A DNA stretch of 20,000 nt from Vermamoeba vermiformis (GCA_045837725.1 JBEWZL010000098.1:360884-380883), one strand, 5' to 3'. Positions 1,440 to 20,000 are shown, numbered from the stretch's first letter. Notes: generated from the letters alone by a model not told the origin. Numbers and translations: made by a program.

Positions 1440-3110
1440 ATGGTGATCCAGAACCTGCGTACGTTTCAGAAATTCAATACACTTTCTAGAGGCATTAATA
1501 ACATGACGTAATTTTAAATAATTGGTTTCGTAATTTTATCATCCCGCGCGCTGTAGTTTTGACGGCATCTAAGTTCGATCACATTTTTAATGTTAATTAG
1601 GATCAGCCAATTAAATTTGATACTGTTACTAATATTGTCCTAGATTATATATTTGTTTTTGTATGCACGGTGACCTTAACATCTGGATTTTTGCTCAACA
1701 AACCCGATCTGTCGAACTTAAAAACGTTCAACATTCTAGATTATGGAGCTAAAGGCGACGGTAATACATCAAATACAAGAGCAATTAATATGGCGTTAAT
1801 GGAGGCTCAGCGTAACGGTGGTGGCATCGTACTCGTACCTGAAGGCAGATTCGTCTCTGGCGCGTTTCAAGTGACTGGTCAGAACATCTATTTGCAAGTA
1901 GAGGGCGAACTCCTCGCTACTGACGATGCATCTCAATACTACTGCTTGCCTTCCGTTACCTCCGACACAGGGCCATGCGACTATCCATTCATCGCGGTAT
2001 TGAACGGCAATGGCATCGGTATCATTGGCAGCGGCAGTATTAATGGCGGGGCGAACAGTCCACCCGGTCATTTGGTCGCGAAATATCTGCCCGACTTGAA
2101 CTTCTTGGTGCCGAGTGAATGGAAACTGCCCAATTGCACGGGCTATTCGTGCAGACCCAAGCTGCTCGTGATCAACAACTGCACTAATGGTAAGCACATA
2201 TTGTCATTGCGTAGTCGTGTGCTAACAATTGGTAGCGCTGTTCAAGTCAGTCTCGTTGCTGAACAGCCCGTTATGGACGGTGACTCTCATCGCCTCACAT
2301 CACGTGGAATTTGACGGCGTGAAAATTATCGGCGACAAGCGCTGGCCCAACAACGACGGCATTGATCCAATTTCAGGCTCGTTTATCACCATCAAGAACT
2401 CCAAGATTATTGCGGGCGATGATTGTATTTGTCTCATCACGCACACGCACGAGGACATTCATGACGTGCTGGTTGAAGACTGCGAGTTTGAATCGAGTTC
2501 TGCGGCACTAAAGATTTCAGCCTTTGAATCGACAGCTACTGGTGCCATCTTCAACGTCATGTTCAGAAACAGCAAAATTACTGATACGAACAGAGGTCTC
2601 GCGATTATGCCGCGATGGGGCACTGGTCAGATCTCGCAAGTTGTCTTCGCTAACCTTACGATGGAAACGCATTACTTCTCCAATGCGTGGTGGGGCAGTG
2701 CTGAGCCTATTTATATTACGAGCATTGACTCGTCTACAACGCACTTTTGGAATGGCGCCATCTCTGACATCAAGTTCTACAACGTTACGGCACACAGCGA
2801 GAACGGCATTGTGATCCGCACTCAAAAAGGCAAAGAACAGATCCAAAACGTGTTTTTCGATCAAGTGCGCGTGACTATAGACAAATTCAGTAATATTTCT
2901 AACCCAATGCACGACTGGCGCCCGTCTCCTCCGCCAGAAGTGGAGCCGTGCAAAGTCGATGGCTTTTACATTGACAACGCGGACTACGTTATCATCACCG
3001 ACAGTACTGTCACCTACACGCAACCTTCGCAACCGTTCTATGGCGAATGCATGAATCGCACGAGCTCTGTGCACCACGTTGTCGTTAGCAACTTTTTCTG
3101 CACAGAGTAA
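1440..3110 (+). CDS. Secreted glycoside hydrolase family 28 (polygalacturonase-like) protein, ~479 aa (exons 1440-1458, 1644-2189, 2236-3110)
   Basis: Splicing gives a signal peptide (MVIQNLHYIFVFVCTVTLTSG). The protein has the N-terminal FNILDYGAKGDG..NTRAI..A motif, NSPLWT, and the catalytic NNDGID and GDDCI motifs of GH28 beta-helix enzymes. Intron 2190-2235 (GTAAGC..CTAAC..TAG) joins ORFs 1670 and 2229. Confidence 0.92.
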
Positions 3111-3558: not shown

Positions 3559-6500
3559 ATGAAATTATGTATTTTATTTGTATGCTTGTTATTTATTCAT
3601 GTTGCACGAGCAGTTGGTAAGTTACACTGAAGGCCAGTAAGATCCGTTCAAACTTACCATTACAGATTCAACTCCTGGTTTTATAAAGCAGCAAATACAA
3701 CAGCTCGATAATGCACGACCACGAGCACTAATGTCATATGCAACTGGCACAGCTCATTTAGTGACAGCAATTGAAAACAAACTTGACACGAAACGTAACG
3801 CAGGTACACCACTTTTTTAGTATAACGCAAGCGTGTATGAATTATTTATTAACCAAGTACCAACCGATTTTATTAGTAAAATCAGTGGAGGAAGCGTTGG
3901 TAACATTTTTAGCATCGCATCCGTAGATTGGGATAACCGATCCAAGAAAAGAATTAATAGAAGTTGGAAGACAGGCAGATACCCACATTAAACAATGTAC
4001 TTATAAGCTATCAGCAGGTACCTACGGACATCGTATAATTACATTGAATTATTCCGTCCCTTTCTAATTCATGAATGTTGCAGTTGTACGAAGGTTTAAT
4101 TGTCGAATCAGCTCTATTAAAAGTCACATTTGATGCTGATAACACGGTTGTATCGTCATCCAGCACCATCATTCCGGATCTGAATTTATCTATCGTCCCA
4201 TCGATTATCGAAAAACAGGCCATCGAAATCGCAAGACAAGCGTTAACGAATAGCATGTAGGTTAGGGATAATACAAAGACATCGTATTAACAGTTTTATA
4301 ATAAGGCAATTCGATGCTGGCCATGCGGAGTTGAAGATCTACCGAACGGATCTGGCACGCGGAGTTGCGGGCACAAACCATCTAGCCTATCACGTTATAT
4401 TGAGCTGCATAGAACATCATCGCAAGCACTTTGCCTACGTCGATGCGCACAGCGGTGTTGTGCTTAATGAATTCAATCCCATTCACCACGCACTCAGTCG
4501 CCAAGTCAACCAATACAGCACTTCGCAGCGCTTGTTCAGCGAAGGAGATGCGACACCTGTGAACGGCGAAGTGAGAATGTTGACAGACACGGTGTGTCAG
4601 CAGTACAACATGATGAAAAACGTGGCCGGTTGGCGCAGTTGGGACTTGAGAGGTTCGTAATTTTGTCCTCGTGACACGTGTCATTAACTCACTCGCATGA
4701 CAATAGACGGCACGTTCATTATGGAAGTGAACGTCACTACGAATTCTATGGACGGCTGGGCCTGTCCTAACGCCATGTTCTACATTGATCGCTCGTATTA
4801 TTGCCCTGGCATGGGTATGGTGCCGATGTTACTGGTCACGAGTGGGGTCATGGCTATTCGGACATGGGTAATGCAGCACACAGTACTACCCGAGCACGTC
4901 TCAGAACTAACATTCCGTTATTAGTAGTTGGCTCGGGTGGATTTTTCTATCAATATCAAAGTGGTGCTTTGAGCGAGTCGTTCGCCGACATCATTGGCGA
5001 GACTGTGCAGCTCTTGTGGAAGCAGCCGCGAGAGTACACGCCGAGAACTAATCGTTCGTGCACTTTGACTGACCCCAACCGACGCTGGATCATTGGGGAT
5101 CAGATCACAGGCGTGTTGCCCTTGTTGAACTCCGATGGAAAACTTTACGGTACGTCTGTTAGACTAGCACCAAAAGCAGTGCGTTTAATGTCAATTCAAA
5201 GGTCTCCGTGACATGTACAATCCTAATTGTTACGGTGACCCAGCCACAACTGACGATGAACACGTGTGGTGCAATGGTGCTGATGGCGGTGGAGTGCACG
5301 CTAATTCAGGCATTCCCAACCAAGCCTACGCGTTGTTCACTGACGGCGGTGCATTTAACTCGGCAACGTTTACCGGCGTTGGATTGGTCAAAGCGTTTCA
5401 CATCTACATGCGTGGCTTGTCCAAGCACGTCCCTTCAACGACCTTCAGTCAACACGCTGATTTTGTCATGGCAGTACGTAGTGGAGTAGTGCCACTTGAA
5501 TATGTTCTAATCCGTACTAGGCTTGCAATGAACTCGTCACGAACAATGTCAATCTCACGGATCCATTGACCGGCCAACCTTCTGGCCTAATTGTTAGTGC
5601 AGCTGATTGCTCCACGTTAGGTGCGTTGCATAACGATAATACTGAATGCTCATTCGTATGTTAACTTTAAATTACAGCGGACGTGTTCAGTGCTACTAAG
5701 ATGAAGGCTACATCCTTCTGTGGTAAGTATTAGCGCTTTAACTAGGCGAAGATGATCAGTGCTGATCTCGTTGACAGGTGTCGGTGGAGTGCCAACTCCA
5801 GGTCAAGTCGAGCGAGGTCCATTCCCGTCAGTCATTTTGCCCATTGGTCTGGACAACGTCTATTGGTAAGCCAAGCTCTTCTTTAATTAACCACGAGTAA
5901 CATCGTGCTCAGGGAGACGTCACATTTCCTCGAGTACCAAAATGTTCAGTGCCGCATTGACAATGGAGCATCGTTCAGTGGCGGTGTCTATCAAACACAA
6001 TGGAGCGAGTACTCTTATTGCCCAATGCCCGCGCTAACTGGCGTGCAATCCGTTCAGCTGTACGTTAGCTACAACGGCACTGAGTGGTTTGGTCCCTACG
6101 AAGTTGCAGTCAAAGGTACGCGTAGTGTTGTTAGTCTCGTCATTCGCTTGTTAACAGTTTCCTCACGCAGGTGTTTATCGTGTCAGCTCGTACAATCCGG
6201 GCAGCGGATCATTCGAGGGAGGTACAACGCTCACCATCAACGGCCAGGACTTCATAGAAGGGTTCACTGGTTGCAATCCTGCAGCACAATCAACGAGTGA
6301 TCCTGATTGCGCTGTTTGTTTCTTCGGCACCAGCGTGACCTCCGTTGCAGTGCCAGCGACTGTGGTATCATCCACGCAAATCAAGTAAGACTCGGTGACA
6401 AGTCTTGATTTCGCTCGTTCTTATTCAAGTGACAGATGTACTTCGCCTCCGTGGCAATCTCTCGGCACGCCGGACACGACGATCAGTTTCTCAATTGCAA

Positions 6501-12982: not shown

Positions 12983-13890
12983 CTACTTGGCATTAGATTT
13001 GGACTTCTTGGTGAAGTTTGTAGGTGACGAAGGTTCATCACGTTTGCGCTTTTTGGAAGTTGCCGGGGTTTCATCCATGATGCCAGGCACATAAGGAGTC
13101 TCAGGCAAATCCTCATCCACGGCCATCTTAGCAGGAGTGTCAGGCAGTCCCAGTGGCTCATCATCTTCATCACCTTCTTGCACTTTGTTTGTAACAATCT
13201 CAAACAAAGTGTTTTGAAGGGCTGTGGCATCTTCTTGACTGGACAAGCGTGAGGAAATGAACCTTGAAACATGCTGGCATGCCACCTCCTTGTTGTCGGT
13301 AAGCATGAAACCAAGGTAGGTAGCTGTCATGTTGACGCAAGCAATGTAAGATGCTGCCGAGCACTCGTTGAAAACAATGACAAAAGGGGCAGGAGGAGCA
13401 AAGGCCTATCTATAAGTCAGCAAACGAAAGGTGGTGAAAAAAAGAAACTTACCCGAATAACAAACTCAAACATTTCAATTGGAGGCTGCCTTGGATACAT
13501 AGGAGGTGCAGCAGTGGAAGCTCTTGCACGCAAGTGCTCTTCCTGTGTTGGTGCTTTGAAGGTACCATGAGACCAGTATTGACTTCTGTGGCGTGCCCCA
13601 TCCAAATCTTCATCATTAAAGTGTGGCTGGCCACCTTTCACCTTGAGAAAGTAGAAGTCCCAGCAAGTTGCTGCAGGGCGGTCTTTTTGAAGGACCCGCG
13701 CAGGAGGATACGACATCACTCCAGTGTACTTGAAGTCGAACTCCAAAGTATTTTCCTTGGCGGATAGACCAGTGAAAATAGTTGGGGAGTCTGCTGGCTC
13801 AGCAATAATCACAACCCTGCCATTTTCGAGGACAGACTTCATCATTGCATTCCAATGGGCGTTAGAAATTCTTCCAGTGCAGTTATTCAT
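12983..13890 (-). CDS. Orphan protein of ~286 aa with an acidic low-complexity C-terminus and a basic NLS-like motif (exons 13890-13453, 13405-12983; may extend 5' through upstream exons)
   Basis: A 47-nt phase-0 intron at 13406-13452 (GTAAGT..CTGAC..TAG) joins ORFs 13417-13890 and 12983-13330 in frame. The C-terminus reads EGDEDDE...SKKRKRDEPSSPTNFTKKSK, and AATAAA follows on the minus strand near 12930. No family recognised. Confidence 0.7.
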
Positions 13891-14010
13891 ATATACTACA
13901 GGGCTTGGCCAAACAGGGCTAGCCCTAAAAATTATCCAAAAAGTTTTGTAAAGTCAAACTATACTGGTGGTTTTTCAACCAAGAGTTTGACATTGAGCAA
14001 GAGTTGTAAA

Positions 14011-14130
14011 GTGCTAACGAGAGTTGCCGAGCACTAACGAGAGTTGCCGAGCACTAACGAGAGTTGCCAAGCACTAACAAGAGTCGCCGGGCACTAACGA
14101 GAGTCACCAAGTGCTAACAAGAGTTGCCGT
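14011..14130. repeat. 20-bp minisatellite, 6 copies (consensus GCACTAACGAGAGTTGCCGA)
   Basis: Six consecutive 20-mers read directly, plus a degenerate partial copy at ~13999-14010. Confidence 0.95.
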
Positions 14131-14269
14131 GAGAACACTAATAAATAAAACATTTAAACAGGCAAACATATTTAAAGATCATTTATTCTTTCTATTGTTA
14201 CAATAACCATTACTAAAAAGCTAAAAATAAAGAGTTAGCTACAGTTAAAAATTAAAAGAGAGATGATGT

Positions 14270-14703
14270 AAAAAAATTCATCAAAAACTGCATGACCATG
14301 CTGGTCATGAACTAAGAAAAATAAAGTCCAAAACTTCATGACCACACTGGTCACGAACTAAAAAATTAAAGTCCTACGAGGTCGTCTCCATGGAGAGACG
14401 ACATCTGAAAAAAAACTAAGTCCTGCGAGGTCGTCTCCAGCGGGAGACGATGTTAAAAAAAACTAAGTCAAAAACTTCGTGACCGCACTGGTCACGAACT
14501 AAAAATTAAAGTCCTACGAGGTCGTCTCCACAGGGAGACGATGTTAGAAAAAAACTAAGTCCAAAACTTCATGACCACACTGGTCACGAACTAAAAAATT
14601 AAAGTCTCGCGAGGTTGTCTCCCTAAGGAGACGATGTATGAAAAAATTAAGTCCGGCAGAGGTTGTCTCCCTATGGAGACGATGTCGGAAAAAACTAAGT
14701 CCT
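14270..14703. repeat. Array of nine ~44-50-bp hairpin units of two types, in the order A A B B A B A B B, with a shared A-rich linker
   Basis: Type A, TTCRTGACC-N5-GGTCAYGAA, at 14291, 14335, 14476 and 14568. Type B, TYGTCTCC-N4-GGAGACGA, at 14381, 14431, 14522, 14615 and 14663. The linker AAAAA(C/T)TAA(A)GTC lies between units. Confidence 0.93.
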
Positions 14704-15011
14704 AAACTAACTTACCTTTGGCCGTATGGTTTGTAGCCAGTTGAGGTATGCCTCAACGCACCGAAGGTTGTAACGGAACCACAGAGCGAAAGGTATCTGC
14801 TGAACGAGCAGGACTTGGGAAATTCGTTAGTTAGATGTGGAAAAATTAATTCGAACTGGCTTACCAGCTGCTGGAGGGTTGTTCAAAGTAGTGAAGATAT
14901 GCCAACTTTCTAATGTGCGTGCACGTGTATTCGCGGGAGCCAGCTGCCCTAAACAAACAAAAGTTCAGTCAGATGCCGCGCACTCGAAAATTATTTTAAA
15001 AATTTAGTGCG

Positions 15012-15175
15012 AGTCCTAGGAGGTCGTCTCCACCGCGGAGACGACCTACAAAAAAAACAAAGTCGTAGGAGGTCGTCTCCACCGTGGAGACGATCTACGA
15101 AAAAAACAAAGTCGTAGGAGGTCGTCTCCCTAAGGAGACGATGTAAAAAAAATAAAGTCCAGCAGAGGTCGTCAA
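15012..15175. repeat. Second array of type-B hairpins (3 full copies plus 1 truncated, 49-bp period)
   Basis: AGGTCGTCTCC-N4/5-GGAGACGA at 15021 (11-bp stem), 15070 and 15119; truncated GAGGTCGTC near 15166. Confidence 0.92.
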
Positions 15176-15350
15176 ACAATCATACCCTTGGCCATAATGG
15201 GTTGTAGTGGGCCACGATGCTCCACAGCAGGTTGTAATGCCATGACAGGAGCCGTAGGGCGAAAGGAAATTCGAATGAGCTTCGAACGTTAGATCAAAAT
15301 TTGAACTCAAGTAAACTTAGCTTACCTCACACAAGTTGCACGGTGCCAAT

Positions 15351-15417
15351 CCAGCAGTACCTAAGTTGTTCATGAGGTGGCCAGCAGTACCTAAGTTGTT
15401 CATGAGGTAGCCAGCAG
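15351..15417. repeat. 30-bp tandem duplication (2.2 copies)
   Basis: CCAGCAGTACCTAAGTTGTTCATGAGGT(G/A)G occurs twice, followed by CCAGCAG. Confidence 0.95.
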
Positions 15418-15926
15418 CACTGCACAAGCAATAAAAATTAGATGCCGCGCATCTAAAAATTACGGATTTAAATTTGTTTGCTTACCGAATGCTGTGTACT
15501 CGTGGGCTCCCACCTAATTGCATTCTCCTTTGATTTGAGACACGGTAGAAACCAACAGTGAGTTCGAAGAACAGTTAGTATCCCGGACCCGCACCGATCA
15601 GCTGAAAACGAAATATTAGCGTAAATTAAAAATATTCTGAATTTAATTAATGTTAGGGAAACTTACCTCAGTGCACTGCGCACCGTACAAGCACATATTG
15701 GGAAACAGACAGCCGATCGGCACCCAGAACCTTGGCCACAAAGCAGCTGTGTTGCGTTGCGTTCTACAACGCAGTAAACAAGGAAACAATATTCAATAAA
15801 ATTAAATTCACGACCATTGTGGTGATCGTGGTGCTGGTGGTTGTTTATCCAAGTTAGTTTCGCGTGTTAAATTTGTCCGCTGTGCCAGGATTTATCCCAG
15901 CACAAACAATTTTTGGCAGCACGTGC

Positions 15927-16404
15927 TGTCGACGCACGTCGGTTTTCATTGTCGACGCACGTCGGCTTTGGCCTAAAAAAGGAAGTGACCGTTATTCATT
16001 CAGCGTTTATTAAAACTTTGACAGAGCAATGCAACAAATCGACCACACGGGTCGATTTATTTATTTATTACAGCTGTAATAAACAGAAAGTAACGCGCCG
16101 CGGCATCAGAGCCGTTCCAGCGCGAGTTATTTGGATGGAGAGCTGATGCAAAATGTCGCATGCGTTATTTCGCATCAGTAATTCAACAAATCGACCACAA
16201 GGGTCGAAATACTTATTGTTGTGAGCTATTAACAGCGGAAAGTGACGCGCCACGGTCGCAATGGCCGTTCAGCGCGAGTTATTTTGATGGAAACCCGATG
16301 CGAATCCGGATTCTTAGTTAAATCGACCACAAGGGTCGTATTATGGATATCATTTAGTTCCTGTGTATATATCCGTCACGCTCAACGATATTCAGCGTCG
16401 TTGC
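15927..16404. promoter_or_regulatory. Putative bidirectional promoter with repeated palindromic sites
   Basis: Lies between the divergent spliced units. Contains two copies of GTCGACGCACGTCGG (~15928, ~15951), TCGACC-ACA(A/C)G-GGTCG at 16039, 16191 and 16323, and GCCGTT(C)CAGCGCGAGTTATTT twice. Function is inferred from position. Confidence 0.5.
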
Positions 16405-16429
16405 TGCGCGATATACGAGTCAGCAATTT

Positions 16430-18485
16430 GTTCGCGATCGGATGACGCGTTGGACGCATCGAAATAATTCGTAAGTTATTTCATATTAATAACAATAATG
16501 AATATTATGCAATGAATGTGTCCTTTTGAAATTTAAAATTCAAGATAAAAAAATTAATTGCATTATTCGATCGAGCTTTCCGCTCGAACCAAAGTAAAAT
16601 AATTATTTATATTATTGTTTATATATTTTATTAATCGTAATTTTACAGGTTATTATGAAGAAGGCGCGAACCCAGACCGGATGGGTCGATCGAAAACTCG
16701 ATGCGTGTCAGGCCAAGTTTTCTTGACCGGTAAGTGATTTAATATAGTTAATTAAATACTAAACGGTCTAACATTGTTTCTTTAGGTCTTAACAAAAGTA
16801 CAGAACGGATCTCGATCGCGAACTTCACGCGATAAAAAATTTATAGAGAAGGGTAAGTTATTAAGATGATTAATATTTATCGATATTACTGCAGTATTAT
16901 TAACGTTTTATAATTACAGATACGTTCTAATTGGCTTGTGAATGTTTTTACAGTCCACGCAAGTCCACGATCCGTACACGTAGCGATCCGTTAAAATTGC
17001 TTAGTCTTTAAGCAAATAGTTTTAAAGGTAAGTAAATCGATAAATATATATATTTATATATATTTCTAATGTTTAATTAATAGCAGTGTCCGATTACCGT
17101 CAAGTTTTCGCGATCCGAGTCAAATGGATGCCGCGACGGTAATTCAGCAACATGCCTTAGTTTTTAATGGTAAGCTTGTAAAGACGTTTATTACGATGTG
17201 TTCTAATACAATGTAAACCAGGAAGGGTTAACATGACCCGTGAAGAAACATCAACGAGTACGAATCCGCGATCCAGCAGCGGATTCAACTTTTAATCAAA
17301 GGCATCGAGTGCGCCAACGGTAAGTATAACGCGTTATACATTATGAATATCTAACGGTTGTCTGCCCCAGATTTGCTCACGGAGCTGACTACACGGATCG
17401 AACGATCTCGATCCGTACCACGTTAGTAGAGCGCGTCTAACGCGAAAAAGGTAAGTACAACGCATTATTTATAATTGTTATATTGTAATGATTCATTTAA
17501 TTTCGATAGAATAACAGTCTTCACGGACTTAACGGATCCGCGAGATCCAGTATGGTGCGCGTTATTACTCAGCAATGGTAACGCTGTATATCGCGGTAAG
17601 TCGCTAATTCAATAGTAGATGCAACGTGCTAACACGTTATTTAACAGAACTTATCAAGCCCTTGAATAGTTAGTCAGTTGGCGCGGATCGATCCAGCGAG
17701 ATCGGATCCGAAAAAATTGAATGGCCTTATTCAAAGGCTCTTAAGGTAAGTAAAGATCGTTTAATGATATATTTAATATAATATTTAACGCTAACTTTAA
17801 TTATAGAACTTCTGGCGATGCGATCACGGATCTTAGGCGCGATCTGACCCGCGAAGAAAAGTCAGTCAGATCGCTAACAAATCTCACAGGTAAGTCTCAT
17901 TATTGTTTATTATGAATACTAACATTATTTTCTTACTAATTAGAAACGAGTGAAGGGTTATTTTACAAGAACAGACGCGATCGCCACAGCTCACGGATCA
18001 AGATAAATTTTCACGTAGCGCATTGACCGCGCTCCAAGTAAGCAAGATAAAGTTTAATATGCTTATAATTACGTACTAACGTTATTATTAAATTAGTGGA
18101 GACGTGCTGTGATATTTGAATCAGTGATGAGTGATAGTAATGCCTGTAGCATCAAAGCGTTCCAGCGCGTAATTACGGATGGAGACGATGGCTAAATGAT
18201 CGCACTTCTTTTCCTTAGCAACTTAACAGATCGACCACAAGGGTCGTATTATTATTATTTTGATTAAAACCAAGTTGTAAGTTTATTTAGCAATTTTATG
18301 CGTTTGCTAACACCCTTTTAGTAGGGAATTCAAGGTTTTTACATTGCCGTTCCCGAGTTGATTCCTCACTCCAACGGATCGAGATTTTGCCATTTTTAGA
18401 AGGCATCTCACGAGCAATTTTGACTATTTAACTTGTAAAATTAATTGTAAAAGGACTTTAAATAAAAGCGTTTCGCATAAATAAA
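16430..18485 (+). ncRNA. Putative 13-exon non-coding RNA built from GATC-centred hairpin modules (copy 1)
   Basis: Introns at 16471-16648, 16730-16785, 16853-16919, 17028-17083, 17170-17221, 17320-17370, 17451-17509, 17596-17647, 17746-17806, 17890-17943, 18038-18096 and 18277-18321. All start GTAAG and end YAG; most have CTAAC/CTAAT/TTAAC branch sites. Exon 17648-17745 and segment 16954-17027 have stops in all three frames. AATAAA at ~18461 and ~18480. The ends are approximate. Confidence 0.72.
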
Positions 18486-18535
18486 ATTGATAAAAATCTC
18501 GCCGGAGGGAATTACAAAGATCTGGATGCGTTATT

Positions 18536-18768
18536 TTTATTAAAACTTTGACAGATCGACCACAAGGGTCGTCATATTTATGTTTTATTGATAATTAACA
18601 TATGGTAGTTACGCGCCACGGTTGGAGCGGCCGTTCAGCGCGAGTTATTTTGATTTGAAGTCGATGCGAACTTGGATTCGCGTCAGATCGACCACAAGGG
18701 TCGAATTATTTATAGTATTTAGTTTAGTGTATATATTGTACACGCCCAACGATATTCAGCGTCGTTGC
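18536..18768. repeat. Diverged direct repeat of the 16006-16404 promoter-like module
   Basis: Shared blocks in the same order: TTTATTAAAACTTTGACAGA, TCGACCACA(A/C)GGGTCG, ACGCGCCACGGT, GGCCGTTCAGCGCGAGTTATTTTGAT, TCGACCACAAGGGTCG, CAACGATATTCAGCGTCGTTGC. Confidence 0.9.
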
Positions 18769-19179
18769 AGCGCGAGGCGTCAGCGTGCATCTTTCGGTCG
18801 CTAAATCTACGAACAGTAAGTTAAAATTTTGATGGCGGTCGTAAGATATAACTTACTTCCACCATTTATAATAATAGAATAACGTTAAACAGAGGTCAAT
18901 TTTTTTCCTATTTTTAGAATCAATCGGATCGAACTTAGTGCTCGAAAATTAATAATAAAACTAATCAAAAACGATAATATAGACCCTATTATTAAATATT
19001 AATCGGTTTTTTTATTATAGAACCCGACACGAAAAAATTACCACGATCGAAAGTTTTATTTTCTTTCGATTCGTTGGATCTCGACCACCAATGGTCGTTA
19101 AATGTTATTCAGTACTGTTTCGTTCGTTTCCTGCGTTGGCTGGTATTCTCACTGCTCGCTCGTGGGGTCGCTAGCTCGA

Positions 19180-20000
19180 TGGCGCGATCGGATGCGTGGA
19201 ACGCGTCCAAATAATACGTAAGTAATTATTTTAATATATTAGATATTAGAACGACGCAATGAATGCGTCGATTTCGTATTTAAAATTATAGTTAAAGTAT
19301 TAAAAATTTAAATTCACGGATCGAGTTTAGTGCTCGATTTAATTTCGAAATTACGCTATAAATATTATTATACTAATATTTTAACGTTTATTATGGCAGG
19401 GATCGTGCGATTGAAGAGGTCTCGAACCGCGTCCGATCAGTCGCTGCTTAGATCCGTGAAGTGTACACAGAGAACCGCAGGTAAGCAATTCGATACTATT
19501 TAATTGATAATTTAAACCATGCTAACACTTCATATTAGGCAAACCAACGCAAAAAACGGCGGATCTAGATCGCGGACTTGACGCGATAACAGCTATGGCT
19601 CGTCTCGTCAGTTGCTCTTGGTAAGGATAAAAATTCATAGAAAATGATGACCAATAACATTCAATAGAATGCTATATGATAACAGCGCGATTATTCAGCA
19701 GGTGAACCGCTTCGATCCAGCGCTGCTCTGGATCCACAAATTTCGCTTGAATGGCTCATTCATTATAGAAAGTGAGTAAAACGCGTTCTATATAATACTA
19801 TAATCGCTAATACTTTCACTTTTTAATTATAGGAGTTGATTGGTGCGATAATTGGAGATCAAACAGCGCGCGATCCGATCTCGGCGAAGTACGCAATCTG
19901 TACCCTAAGGCCGCAGAACGCTTCGTAAGTTAATATATAGCTAGAAGGTAGATGATGTTAACGATTCTTATTATTATTTAGGCTGTAATCGCTCACGGTG
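19180..20000 (+). ncRNA. Second, paralogous multi-exon hairpin-module RNA (copy 2), truncated by the window end
   Basis: Introns at 19218-19399, 19481-19538, 19621-19667, 19772-19832 and 19925-19981. The end of exon 1, the long first intron and the exon-3 core match copy 1. A possible extra upstream intron starts at 18816. Confidence 0.7.

Follow-up and report, generated by a model that had tools for sequence, protein, structure and literature searches.

Introduction

The host genes GAS5, UHG and SNHG produce multi-exon, spliced RNAs that have no conserved reading frame; exon sequence changes quickly in them while splice sites persist, and the introns carry small nucleolar RNAs (snoRNAs). Other long noncoding RNAs (lncRNAs), represented by Xist with its A-repeats, roX with its boxes and NORAD with its Pumilio sites, act through many copies of a motif or stem-loop located within large exons. 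I describe here two collinear paralogues, gene 1 (16.36-18.5 kb) and gene 2 (18.73 to beyond 20 kb), which are neighbours in tandem on the + strand of a 20,000-nucleotide stretch of Vermamoeba vermiformis DNA (GCA_045837725.1 JBEWZL010000098.1:360884-380883), hereafter called the window. The two loci very probably represent a family of spliced noncoding RNAs. Like the GAS5/UHG/SNHG genes, they are multi-exon, spliced, frameless and fast-evolving in their exons while keeping their splice sites. Unlike them, they have neither snoRNA boxes nor an Rfam match in their introns, 15 of 18 of which measure 45-81 nt, and the exons themselves are enriched in hairpins and motifs. As in Xist, roX and NORAD, each RNA holds many copies of a short motif, often in stem-loops, and those RNAs are the model for the scaffold or decoy role proposed below; unlike in them, each repeat module is a small exon of its own with its own intron.

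Among amoebozoan noncoding RNAs, those of dictyostelids offer a second comparison. Three reports (PMC7919456, PMC3188802, bioRxiv 10.64898/2026.03.01.708701) describe an element called DUSE, [AT]CCCA[AT]AA, about 60 nt upstream of noncoding RNA genes (Class I RNAs and small nuclear RNAs, snRNAs); Class I RNAs are unspliced molecules of 50-60 nt with a terminal stem and a conserved 11-nt CCTTACAGC-type motif. Upstream of genes 1 and 2 lies a 17-nt hairpin, H, the core of which stands at a DUSE-like distance, about 52-58 nt before the ACGC of a conserved 5' stem-loop and before the first base found in RNA (18749). With its core ACCACAA, H bears a loose resemblance to a DUSE that has two Cs. Since this core does not match the published consensus, DUSE is an analogy and H is not a member; as a further difference, H is a palindrome and is itself present in RNA reads. 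Unlike the Class I RNAs, the RNA studied here exceeds 1 kb and is spliced, and the CCTTACAGC-type motif was not seen on reading the sequence, no pattern search for it having been made. From Physarum polycephalum, nine 'novel lncRNAs' in three similarity groups are reported in PMC4758236; likened to the present genes by description only, they too form unnamed lncRNA families, in their case from an amoebozoan. In full-text literature searches, H as DNA in either orientation or as RNA had no match and nothing comparable on lncRNAs came up, and no earlier description of such a family was found there or in Rfam, a comparison outside which the Physarum lncRNA sequences (supplement of PMC4758236) were left.

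Results

Gene models were drawn up from donors, then from branch and acceptor motifs, before any RNA data were consulted. Gene 1, complete within the window, consists of 13 exons (about 16395 to about 18500) and 12 introns; gene 2 has at least seven exons (18749 or earlier to the window end) and six introns, and runs off the window. The donors of the 18 introns are GTAAGT (13), GTAAGC (3), GTAAGG (1) and GTGAGT (1), all introns end in AG, and branch-like [CT]TAA[CT] motifs accompany the predicted introns of both genes. Three introns are long (178, 182 and 205 nt). The exons of the module chain measure 67-108 nt and, together with their introns, form modules of about 140 nt; the acceptor-to-acceptor spacing is 134-164 nt, with 5 of 14 intervals at 137-139 nt in model coordinates; this regularity points to tandem duplication of exon-intron modules. 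GTAAGT occurs 35 times in the whole window, against 9.4 in shuffles, and between 16471 and 19930 it is found 13 times on the + strand versus once on the - strand. Around the window's protein-coding open reading frames (ORFs), outside the gene models, candidate introns abound; they measure 43-55 nt, start with GTAAGT-type donors and have a CTAAC-like branch motif, and the introns of genes 1 and 2 are of the same style. The latter thus look ordinary for this genome and would be removed by the spliceosome.

Direct evidence for splicing comes from the public run X5, the contigs of which contain two joints, both falling exactly on introns predicted beforehand (16853-16919 and 18816-19020); since the contigs lack exactly these introns, the RNA is spliced. 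One contig starts at 18749, joins 18815 to 19021 and continues to 19174, so that the exon of gene 2 carrying the conserved 5' stem-loop is spliced onto a 197-nt exon (19021-19217). Three sets of raw RNA reads, X7, X8 and X9, which bear the same species label as the best-matching DNA run, yielded 6, 9 and 14 reads, each aligned only partly. None of these reads covers either gene proper and none falls on a control gene (12983-13953), so that these runs are uninformative on the expression of both loci. What the reads do match, at 90-95% identity and within other flanks, is confined to the two elements that are conserved most, H and the 5' stem-loop; two further X5 contigs likewise carry H or the 5' stem-loop with other flanks, and one X5 contig contains a paralogue of one of the upstream units described below. 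Judged by sequence, these look-alikes from X5, X7, X8 and X9 would be paralogues, or orthologues in a diverged strain, and would thus represent further family members transcribed elsewhere. Together with the two paralogues in the window, they support the gene family put forward in the preliminary description of this DNA.

The components of both gene models, all on the + strand, are as follows.

16395..16470, +: gene 1 exon 1; donor at 16471, 5' end approximate
16471..16648, +: gene 1 intron 1, 178 nt, structured (fold z -3.1, interior z 6.5), two hairpins in common with copy 2, no snoRNA boxes
16649..16729, +: gene 1 exon 2, 81 nt; splice-motif model
16786..16852, +: gene 1 exon 3, hairpin ATCGCG-N7-CGCGAT; model, X5 contig spans 16810-16851
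16853..16919, +: gene 1 intron 3, 67 nt; X5 joint 16851>16919 skips 67 nt, GT..AG (cut +1)
16920..17027, +: gene 1 exon 4, 108 nt; X5 contig spans 16919-17027, its match ending at the predicted exon end
17084..17169, +: gene 1 exon 5; splice-motif model
17222..17319, +: gene 1 exon 6, 8-bp hairpin GAATCCGC..GCGGATTC; model and stem scan
17371..17450, +: gene 1 exon 7, 9-bp hairpin ACGGATCGA..TCGATCCGT; stem scan, fold z -3.0
17510..17595, +: gene 1 exon 8; splice-motif model
17648..17745, +: gene 1 exon 9, homologue of gene 2 exon 5; alignment z 9.9, fold z -4.0
17807..17889, +: gene 1 exon 10, homologue of gene 2 exon 6; alignment z 4.4, fold z -2.6
17944..18037, +: gene 1 exon 11; splice-motif model
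18097..18276, +: gene 1 exon 12, unit-like, holds hairpin H4 (18230-18246); followed by a well-formed 45-nt intron, 18277-18321
18322..18500, +: gene 1 probable last exon, from reading the sequence; two AATAAA near 18460 and 18481, 3' end approximate
18749..18815, +: gene 2 exon 1, 5' end at or before 18749; X5 contig
18816..19020, +: gene 2 intron 1, 205 nt, no counterpart in gene 1; X5 joint 18812>19021, the three letters between being 18813-18815 with one mismatch
19021..19217, +: gene 2 exon 2, 197 nt, degenerate H-like hairpin near 19076; X5 contig and alignment
19218..19399, +: gene 2 intron 2, 182 nt, homologue of gene 1 intron 1; fold z -2.6, alignment
19400..19480, +: gene 2 exon 3, 81 nt, homologue of gene 1 exon 2; exon alignment and model
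19539..19620, +: gene 2 exon 4, homologue of gene 1 exon 3; alignment z 14.2
19699..19771, +: gene 2 exon 5, homologue of gene 1 exon 9; alignment and stem scan, acceptor 19698 or 19701
19833..19924, +: gene 2 exon 6, homologue of gene 1 exon 10; exon alignment and model
19982..20000, +: gene 2 exon 7, beginning only, truncated by the window end; splice-motif model

The spliced models contain stops in every frame. Seven of the 18 exons are closed in all three frames, gene 1 accounting for six (out of its 12), while all six whole exons of gene 2 except exon 2 keep at least one open frame each. Exon lengths are out of phase, alignment of the two copies reveals no start codon or reading frame common to the paralogues, and no ORF of at least 70 amino acids exists on either strand in 16.45-19.0 kb. 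A protein-coding gene or pseudogene was rejected, there being no continuous or recently broken frame common to the paralogues, and the preliminary claim that the locus is not a decayed coding gene is thereby upheld. With GT..AG introns removed (2 of 18 introns, in a run presumed to be RNA) and no coding capacity, the transcripts fall into the class of spliced lncRNAs.

Nor do they match a known RNA family: Rfam gave nothing at the gathering score and only chance-level matches at E<=5, and ARAGORN found no tRNA. A snoRNA host gene with a snoRNA in intron 1 was discarded, given that none of the three long introns has a box C or D, that Rfam has no match and that the other 15 introns are so short. 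A telomerase RNA was likewise set aside, no CCCTAA-type template being seen on reading gene 1, and a run of 9 nt that gene 2 exon 5 has in common with the 3' end of 18S was treated as chance, for it is not kept in gene 1. As to microRNA (miRNA)-type precursors, exon stems do not exceed 9 bp; the upstream units can form a hairpin of about 20 bp.

Exon-by-exon local alignment of gene 2 with gene 1 yields a collinear map. Exons 1 and 2 of gene 2 together correspond to exon 1 of gene 1, exon 3 to exon 2, exon 4 to exon 3, exon 5 to exon 9 and exon 6 to exon 10. The extra 205-nt intron of gene 2 sits inside the counterpart of gene 1 exon 1, and gene 2 lacks five modules of gene 1, exons 4-8, which were either lost there or gained in gene 1. 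The repeat spacing is 2.36 kb. The preliminary description had aligned what it took for the ends of exon 1 in both copies, CGCGATCGGATG..ACGC..AAATAAT.C before GTAAGT. This sequence is indeed present at 16436-16470 and 19184-19217; the label is correct for copy 1, and in copy 2 the match is the last 35 nt of exon 2 (19021-19217), because the X5 contig joins 18815 to 19021. The introns that follow (178 nt, 16471-16648, and 182 nt, 19218-19399) and the subsequent 81-nt exons (16649-16729 and 19400-19480) are as first reported, as is the stretch CGGATCT.GATCGCG.ACTT.ACGCGATAA, which starts at 16806 and 19560 and is 90% identical over 30 nt. Weak similarity also exists between gene 2 exon 2 and gene 1 exon 12; it is explained by a degenerate H-like hairpin, CTCGACCACCAATGGTCG, at 19070-19092 inside the former.

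Between the two copies, the picture of conservation is mixed. Across five homologous intron pairs, 27 of 30 positions of the donor hexamers, counted by hand, are identical. Paired segments score z 2.2 to 9.2 against shuffles in local alignment. The interiors of the short introns are near random (z -0.4 to 2.7) and the exons keep islands only (z 2.2-5.6). By MAFFT, paired exons are 33-51% identical; of the five intron pairs, four reach 52-58% and the fifth (I8/4) stands at 32%; as wholes, the exons are no better conserved than the introns. That the donors are conserved although the exons have diverged indicates that splicing itself is under selection, a conclusion which is well supported.

The case for structure is different. 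In the exon-3 hairpin, all 12 stem positions are identical, and so are 5 of the 7 loop positions; the stem being invariant, the hairpin shows no covariation. Two other hairpins are found in a shifted pairing register: GGATC..GATCC differs in this way between gene 1 exon 9 and gene 2 exon 5, and TTGAAT..ATTCAA in gene 1 appears as TGAATG..CATTCA in gene 2. The latter pair (TTGAAT-GGCCTT-ATTCAA, 17717-17734, and TGAATG-GCT-CATTCA, 19748-19762), already noticed in the preliminary description, is real; it joins gene 1 exon 9 to gene 2 exon 5, not exons of the same number. Persistence of hairpins through a shift of register is suggestive, and with two copies only it is no test of structure. The earlier proposal of selection on both splicing and structure thus stands for splicing; for structure, where no compensatory change is seen, two copies make selection no more than plausible. 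It had also been proposed that stems and splice sites should outlast loops and intron interiors; the donors do so relative to the short-intron interiors, whereas the largely identical exon-3 loop and the conserved interior of intron 1 go against it.

The sequence of the exons is unusual in composition. GATC occurs 37 times in 1601 nt of exon, compared with 4 in 1346 nt of intron and 134 in 28001 nt of background, which is a roughly fivefold enrichment in exons. CGCGAT, CGATCC, GCGATC, GATCCG and CGGATC are the top exon hexamers, and the last of these is found 28 times in the window versus 6.7 expected, 19 of the 28 within 16.8-19.9 kb. Exons have an observed/expected CpG ratio of 1.73, compared with 1.13 for the first 14 kb, and GATC/CpG-type motifs occur in both orientations. 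Of 14 internal exons, 8 contain a perfect stem of at least 6 bp, where dinucleotide shuffles give 2.5, and the observed mean stem length was reached by none of 300 such shuffles. Spliced gene 1 RNA has a minimum free energy (MFE) z of -4.2 relative to shuffles.

Upstream of the genes, H recurs. It has six matches in the window, all on the + strand, against 0.02 expected, and in five of the six the ACGC that opens the conserved stem-loop follows after 38-39 nt. In two of these five cases a TATATAT box intervenes and a long gene ensues; in the other three there is no TATA, and what follows is a short unit of 115-135 nt that ends at the next H. The sixth copy, H4, lies inside gene 1 exon 12, and since a well-formed intron of 45 nt comes after it, H is not simply a terminator. 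The elements of this upstream block are listed below.

16038..16054, +: hairpin H1, ATCGACCACACGGGTCG, one mismatch to the other five; pattern match
16055..16189, +: unit U1, a 5' stem-loop and then a tail with homology to the gene 1 exon 12 end (16103-16224 vs 18149-18263, 75%)
16190..16206, +: hairpin H2; pattern match
16207..16321, +: unit U2, within a 253-nt block 77% identical to 18526-18775
16322..16338, +: hairpin H3, 27 nt before TATA and 39 nt before the ACGC of the gene 1 stem-loop; pattern match
16366..16372, +: TATATAT box of gene 1, also in copy 2 (repeat family D6)
16377..16411, +: gene 1 conserved 5' stem-loop, CAACGA..TCGTTG inside CGC..GCG; exact 21-mer in both genes, structure conservation index 0.90, z -3.4, aligns with the units
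18555..18571, +: hairpin H5; pattern match
18572..18686, +: unit U5; repeat, alignment and fold
18687..18703, +: hairpin H6, 26 nt before TATA and 38 nt before the ACGC of the gene 2 stem-loop; pattern match
18730..18736, +: TATATAT box of gene 2; repeat match
18741..18775, +: gene 2 conserved 5' stem-loop; exact 21-mer, X5 contig starts at 18749

The units fold into a long hairpin and are 64-79% alike, and gene 1 exon 12 ends in an H as the unit tails do. The units may therefore be collapsed copies, in which the 5' stem-loop is joined directly to the exon 12 tail, and as such they would resemble spacer-promoter duplicates; H together with TATA would act as a promoter. An Sm-class snRNA or a spliced-leader (SL) RNA was considered for the units and abandoned, since the U-rich GTTATTTT pairs with an upstream GAAAGTNAC in the consensus fold, and Rfam has no snRNA or SL match; further against an SL RNA, each of the three units has a different sequence ahead of the candidate GT. 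Nor is H a Helitron end, as no CTRR is read after it.

In metagenomes, H was detected in at least 121 loci, all single matches. BLAST of 13901-20000 against these loci disclosed extended similarity, among the matches listed, only in L110 and L109, besides a chance-like 22-mer in L089. H with its flanks lies at 275-291 and 435-451 of L110, a 753-nt contig, and at 301-317 of L109, each time between an A-run and a T-run. On L110, H stands 14 nt past the 3' end of a tRNA-Ser(CGA) gene located on the opposite strand, and is duplicated with the tRNA 3' end. Two single matches in viral contigs, and two matches to the 5' stem-loop 19-mer in bacterial metagenome-assembled genomes among prokaryotic genome contigs, were taken as chance.

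The neighbouring sequence contains other repeats. A tandem 49-60-nt repeat at 14257-14708 and 15012-15173 comprises a 9-bp hairpin, GGTCGTCTCC-N4-GGAGACGAC, followed by an A-run on the + strand, so that on the - strand a T-run precedes the hairpin; in places the copies take turns with another hairpin, CATGACC..GGTCATG, and only chance-level matches to miRNA families were obtained in Rfam. About six tandem copies of a 20-nt AGAGTTGCCGAGCACTAACG-like repeat (14000-14129) are found just downstream of a - strand gene ending near 13953, and two tandem copies of a 30-nt repeat, 97% identical, at 15351-15410. On the - strand, 14600-15850 is ORF-free and has GTAAGT/GTAAGC donors (15661-15666, 15480-15485, 14859-14864, 14710-14715) with short candidate introns; this stretch begins by a degenerate inverted H-like hairpin (about 15809-15826), then a GCGTTG..CAACGC stem, and no reads map there. 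Its sequence features suggest a possible noncoding gene, similar in kind and divergent in orientation. At 14715-14795 and 15187-15265, two segments of about 80-100 nt that are paralogous to each other, ..GGTTGTAGC..GGTTGTAAC..GCGAAAGG, each end at a donor-like site on the - strand and have no Rfam match. Further upstream, the first 14 kb offer a eukaryotic, intron-bearing context with ORF fragments, including a GH28 polygalacturonase-like gene (1601-3110) and an M4 (thermolysin-type) peptidase gene (4247-5569). The named eukaryotic relatives of the GH28 protein, at 42-43% identity, are from bdelloid rotifers, Pelomyxa and Physarum; closer matches reach 56-77%, and more distant relatives are mostly from Bacteroidota, a pattern that is compatible with an old gene transfer from bacteria. 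A second protein of the window had a single match, and a protein atlas returned no more than the description 'eukaryotic FUSC/ALMT-like'.

Discussion

The explanation that best fits these observations, to which I assign a probability of about 0.55, is that the two loci are paralogues arranged in tandem and belong to a so far undescribed family of non-protein-coding RNAs that are modular, structured and spliced. Each gene would start with H, a TATA box 26-27 nt further on and then the 5' stem-loop, its ACGC 38-39 nt after H. The body would be a chain of ~140-nt exon-intron modules, the exons of which lack a frame and are packed with GATC/CpG palindromes able to form short stem-loops. Splicing would string these hairpin modules together, yielding for gene 1 a mature RNA of about 1.1-1.3 kb, and the family would evolve by gain and loss of whole modules. 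As a tentative proposal for its mechanism, the mature RNA might be a multivalent scaffold or decoy that presents many GGAUC/CGAUC stem-loops, which would take up several copies of a single protein or else base-pair among themselves; no protein is known to bind GGAUC or CGAUC stems. Bolder, and rather doubtful, is the idea of a new class of RNA with one stem-loop exon per module, growing and shrinking by ~140-nt modules as repeat proteins do, driven by an snRNA-like bipartite promoter (H about 60 nt upstream plus TATA) and assembling a protein or RNA complex on its multivalent GGAUC/CGAUC array. H would then be a lineage-wide signal of noncoding RNA genes, present also beside a tRNA gene in an unrelated metagenome contig.

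Several observations weigh against this explanation or parts of it. X5 is only presumed to be RNA, at a depth of 2-3.5, and covers 2 of the 18 introns. The fold of individual exons is modest on average (mean MFE z -0.91), with three exons below -2.6 and 6 of 18 at or above 0; only two copies are comparable, and no stem exhibits a compensatory change. The scaffold role would have to do without a known shared loop sequence or protein partner. CGGATC and conserved hairpins are also encountered in the long introns (16567, 18925, 19317), and intron 1 keeps a conserved interior (z 6.5), with two hairpins common to both copies, which suggests that the precursor RNA or the DNA matters and not the mature RNA alone. 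The best-kept block lies upstream of the genes (16160-16411 vs 18526-18775, 77% over 253 nt, z 24.8). Finally, paralogue RNA reads run through H and the spacer before the 5' stem-loop, so that the transcription start is not fixed and H may be an RNA element instead of a promoter element.

In one alternative the loci are host or precursor genes: a small RNA would be cut from the structured first intron, from the ~20-bp unit hairpin or from the unit-like last large exon, and the chain of exons would, as snoRNA host genes do, merely carry it and be dispensable itself. The first introns, both long, are in fact the most structured (fold z -3.1 and -2.6) and best-conserved transcribed parts, the units share a long hairpin fold, and a unit paralogue exists in an X5 contig. 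This alternative is nevertheless unlikely. Neither box C/D nor an Rfam snoRNA, miRNA or snRNA match was detected, 15 of the 18 introns are too short to hold a snoRNA, the exon stems (9 bp at most) are too short for Dicer-type processing, and the GATC and hairpin enrichment of the exons would be left unexplained.

Alternatively, function might reside in the DNA or in the act of transcription or splicing, GATC/CpG islands ~140 bp apart serving as binding or modification sites and the mature RNA being a by-product. The strand-specificity of the signals (GTAAGT, 13 to 1; H, six out of six on the + strand), the excess of exon hairpins over dinucleotide expectation and the conservation of donors despite diverged exons, by which splicing itself appears selected, make this quite unlikely, even though the motifs come in both orientations and inside long introns, the upstream block is the best-conserved part and the modules are regularly spaced (134-164 nt, acceptor to acceptor).

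Distinctly improbable is a selfish or neutral array, that is, a transcribed repeat that multiplies in tandem, perhaps of mobile-element origin, with chance splice sites and no function in the cell. Such an origin would suit the tandem architecture, the units, the 2.36-kb spacing, the gain or loss of modules, the adjoining 14.0-15.2 kb full of other tandem hairpin repeats and the several H copies on one short metagenome contig by a tRNA gene. Unlike what neutral decay would leave, all 18 introns keep full splice signals while the paired exons are 33-51% identical; no transposase or reverse-transcriptase frame is present, no ORF reaching 70 amino acids in 16.45-19.0 kb on either strand, and no terminal repeats were seen (the scan was for direct repeats, inverted ones not being scanned). 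A decayed protein-coding gene, or for gene 2 the long 5' untranslated region of a coding gene beyond the window, finds some room in the missing 3' part of gene 2 and its partly open exons, but it is very improbable, and for gene 1 close to refuted, since gene 1 is complete, frameless and closed in three frames in 6 of 12 exons, exon lengths are out of phase, the paralogues share no frame or start codon, and intact splice signals do not fit decay.

The RNA family is well supported, and the scaffold role is a proposal for it. Animals and plants are familiar sources of spliced lncRNAs, but descriptions from microbial eukaryotes are few, and families with a recognisable, conserved architecture are rarer still. 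If the locus were only a transcribed repeat array, the finding would be a curiosity. As a family of spliced noncoding RNAs, with one intron per ~145 nt of noncoding transcript, full splice signals and exon sequences that have largely drifted apart, it lends itself, as a clean natural example, to the question of what is retained by selection in an lncRNA: splicing, local hairpins or the number of motifs. The common block of H, TATA and 5' stem-loop offers a handle by which all members could be found in this genome and in its relatives, which would enable a covariation test.

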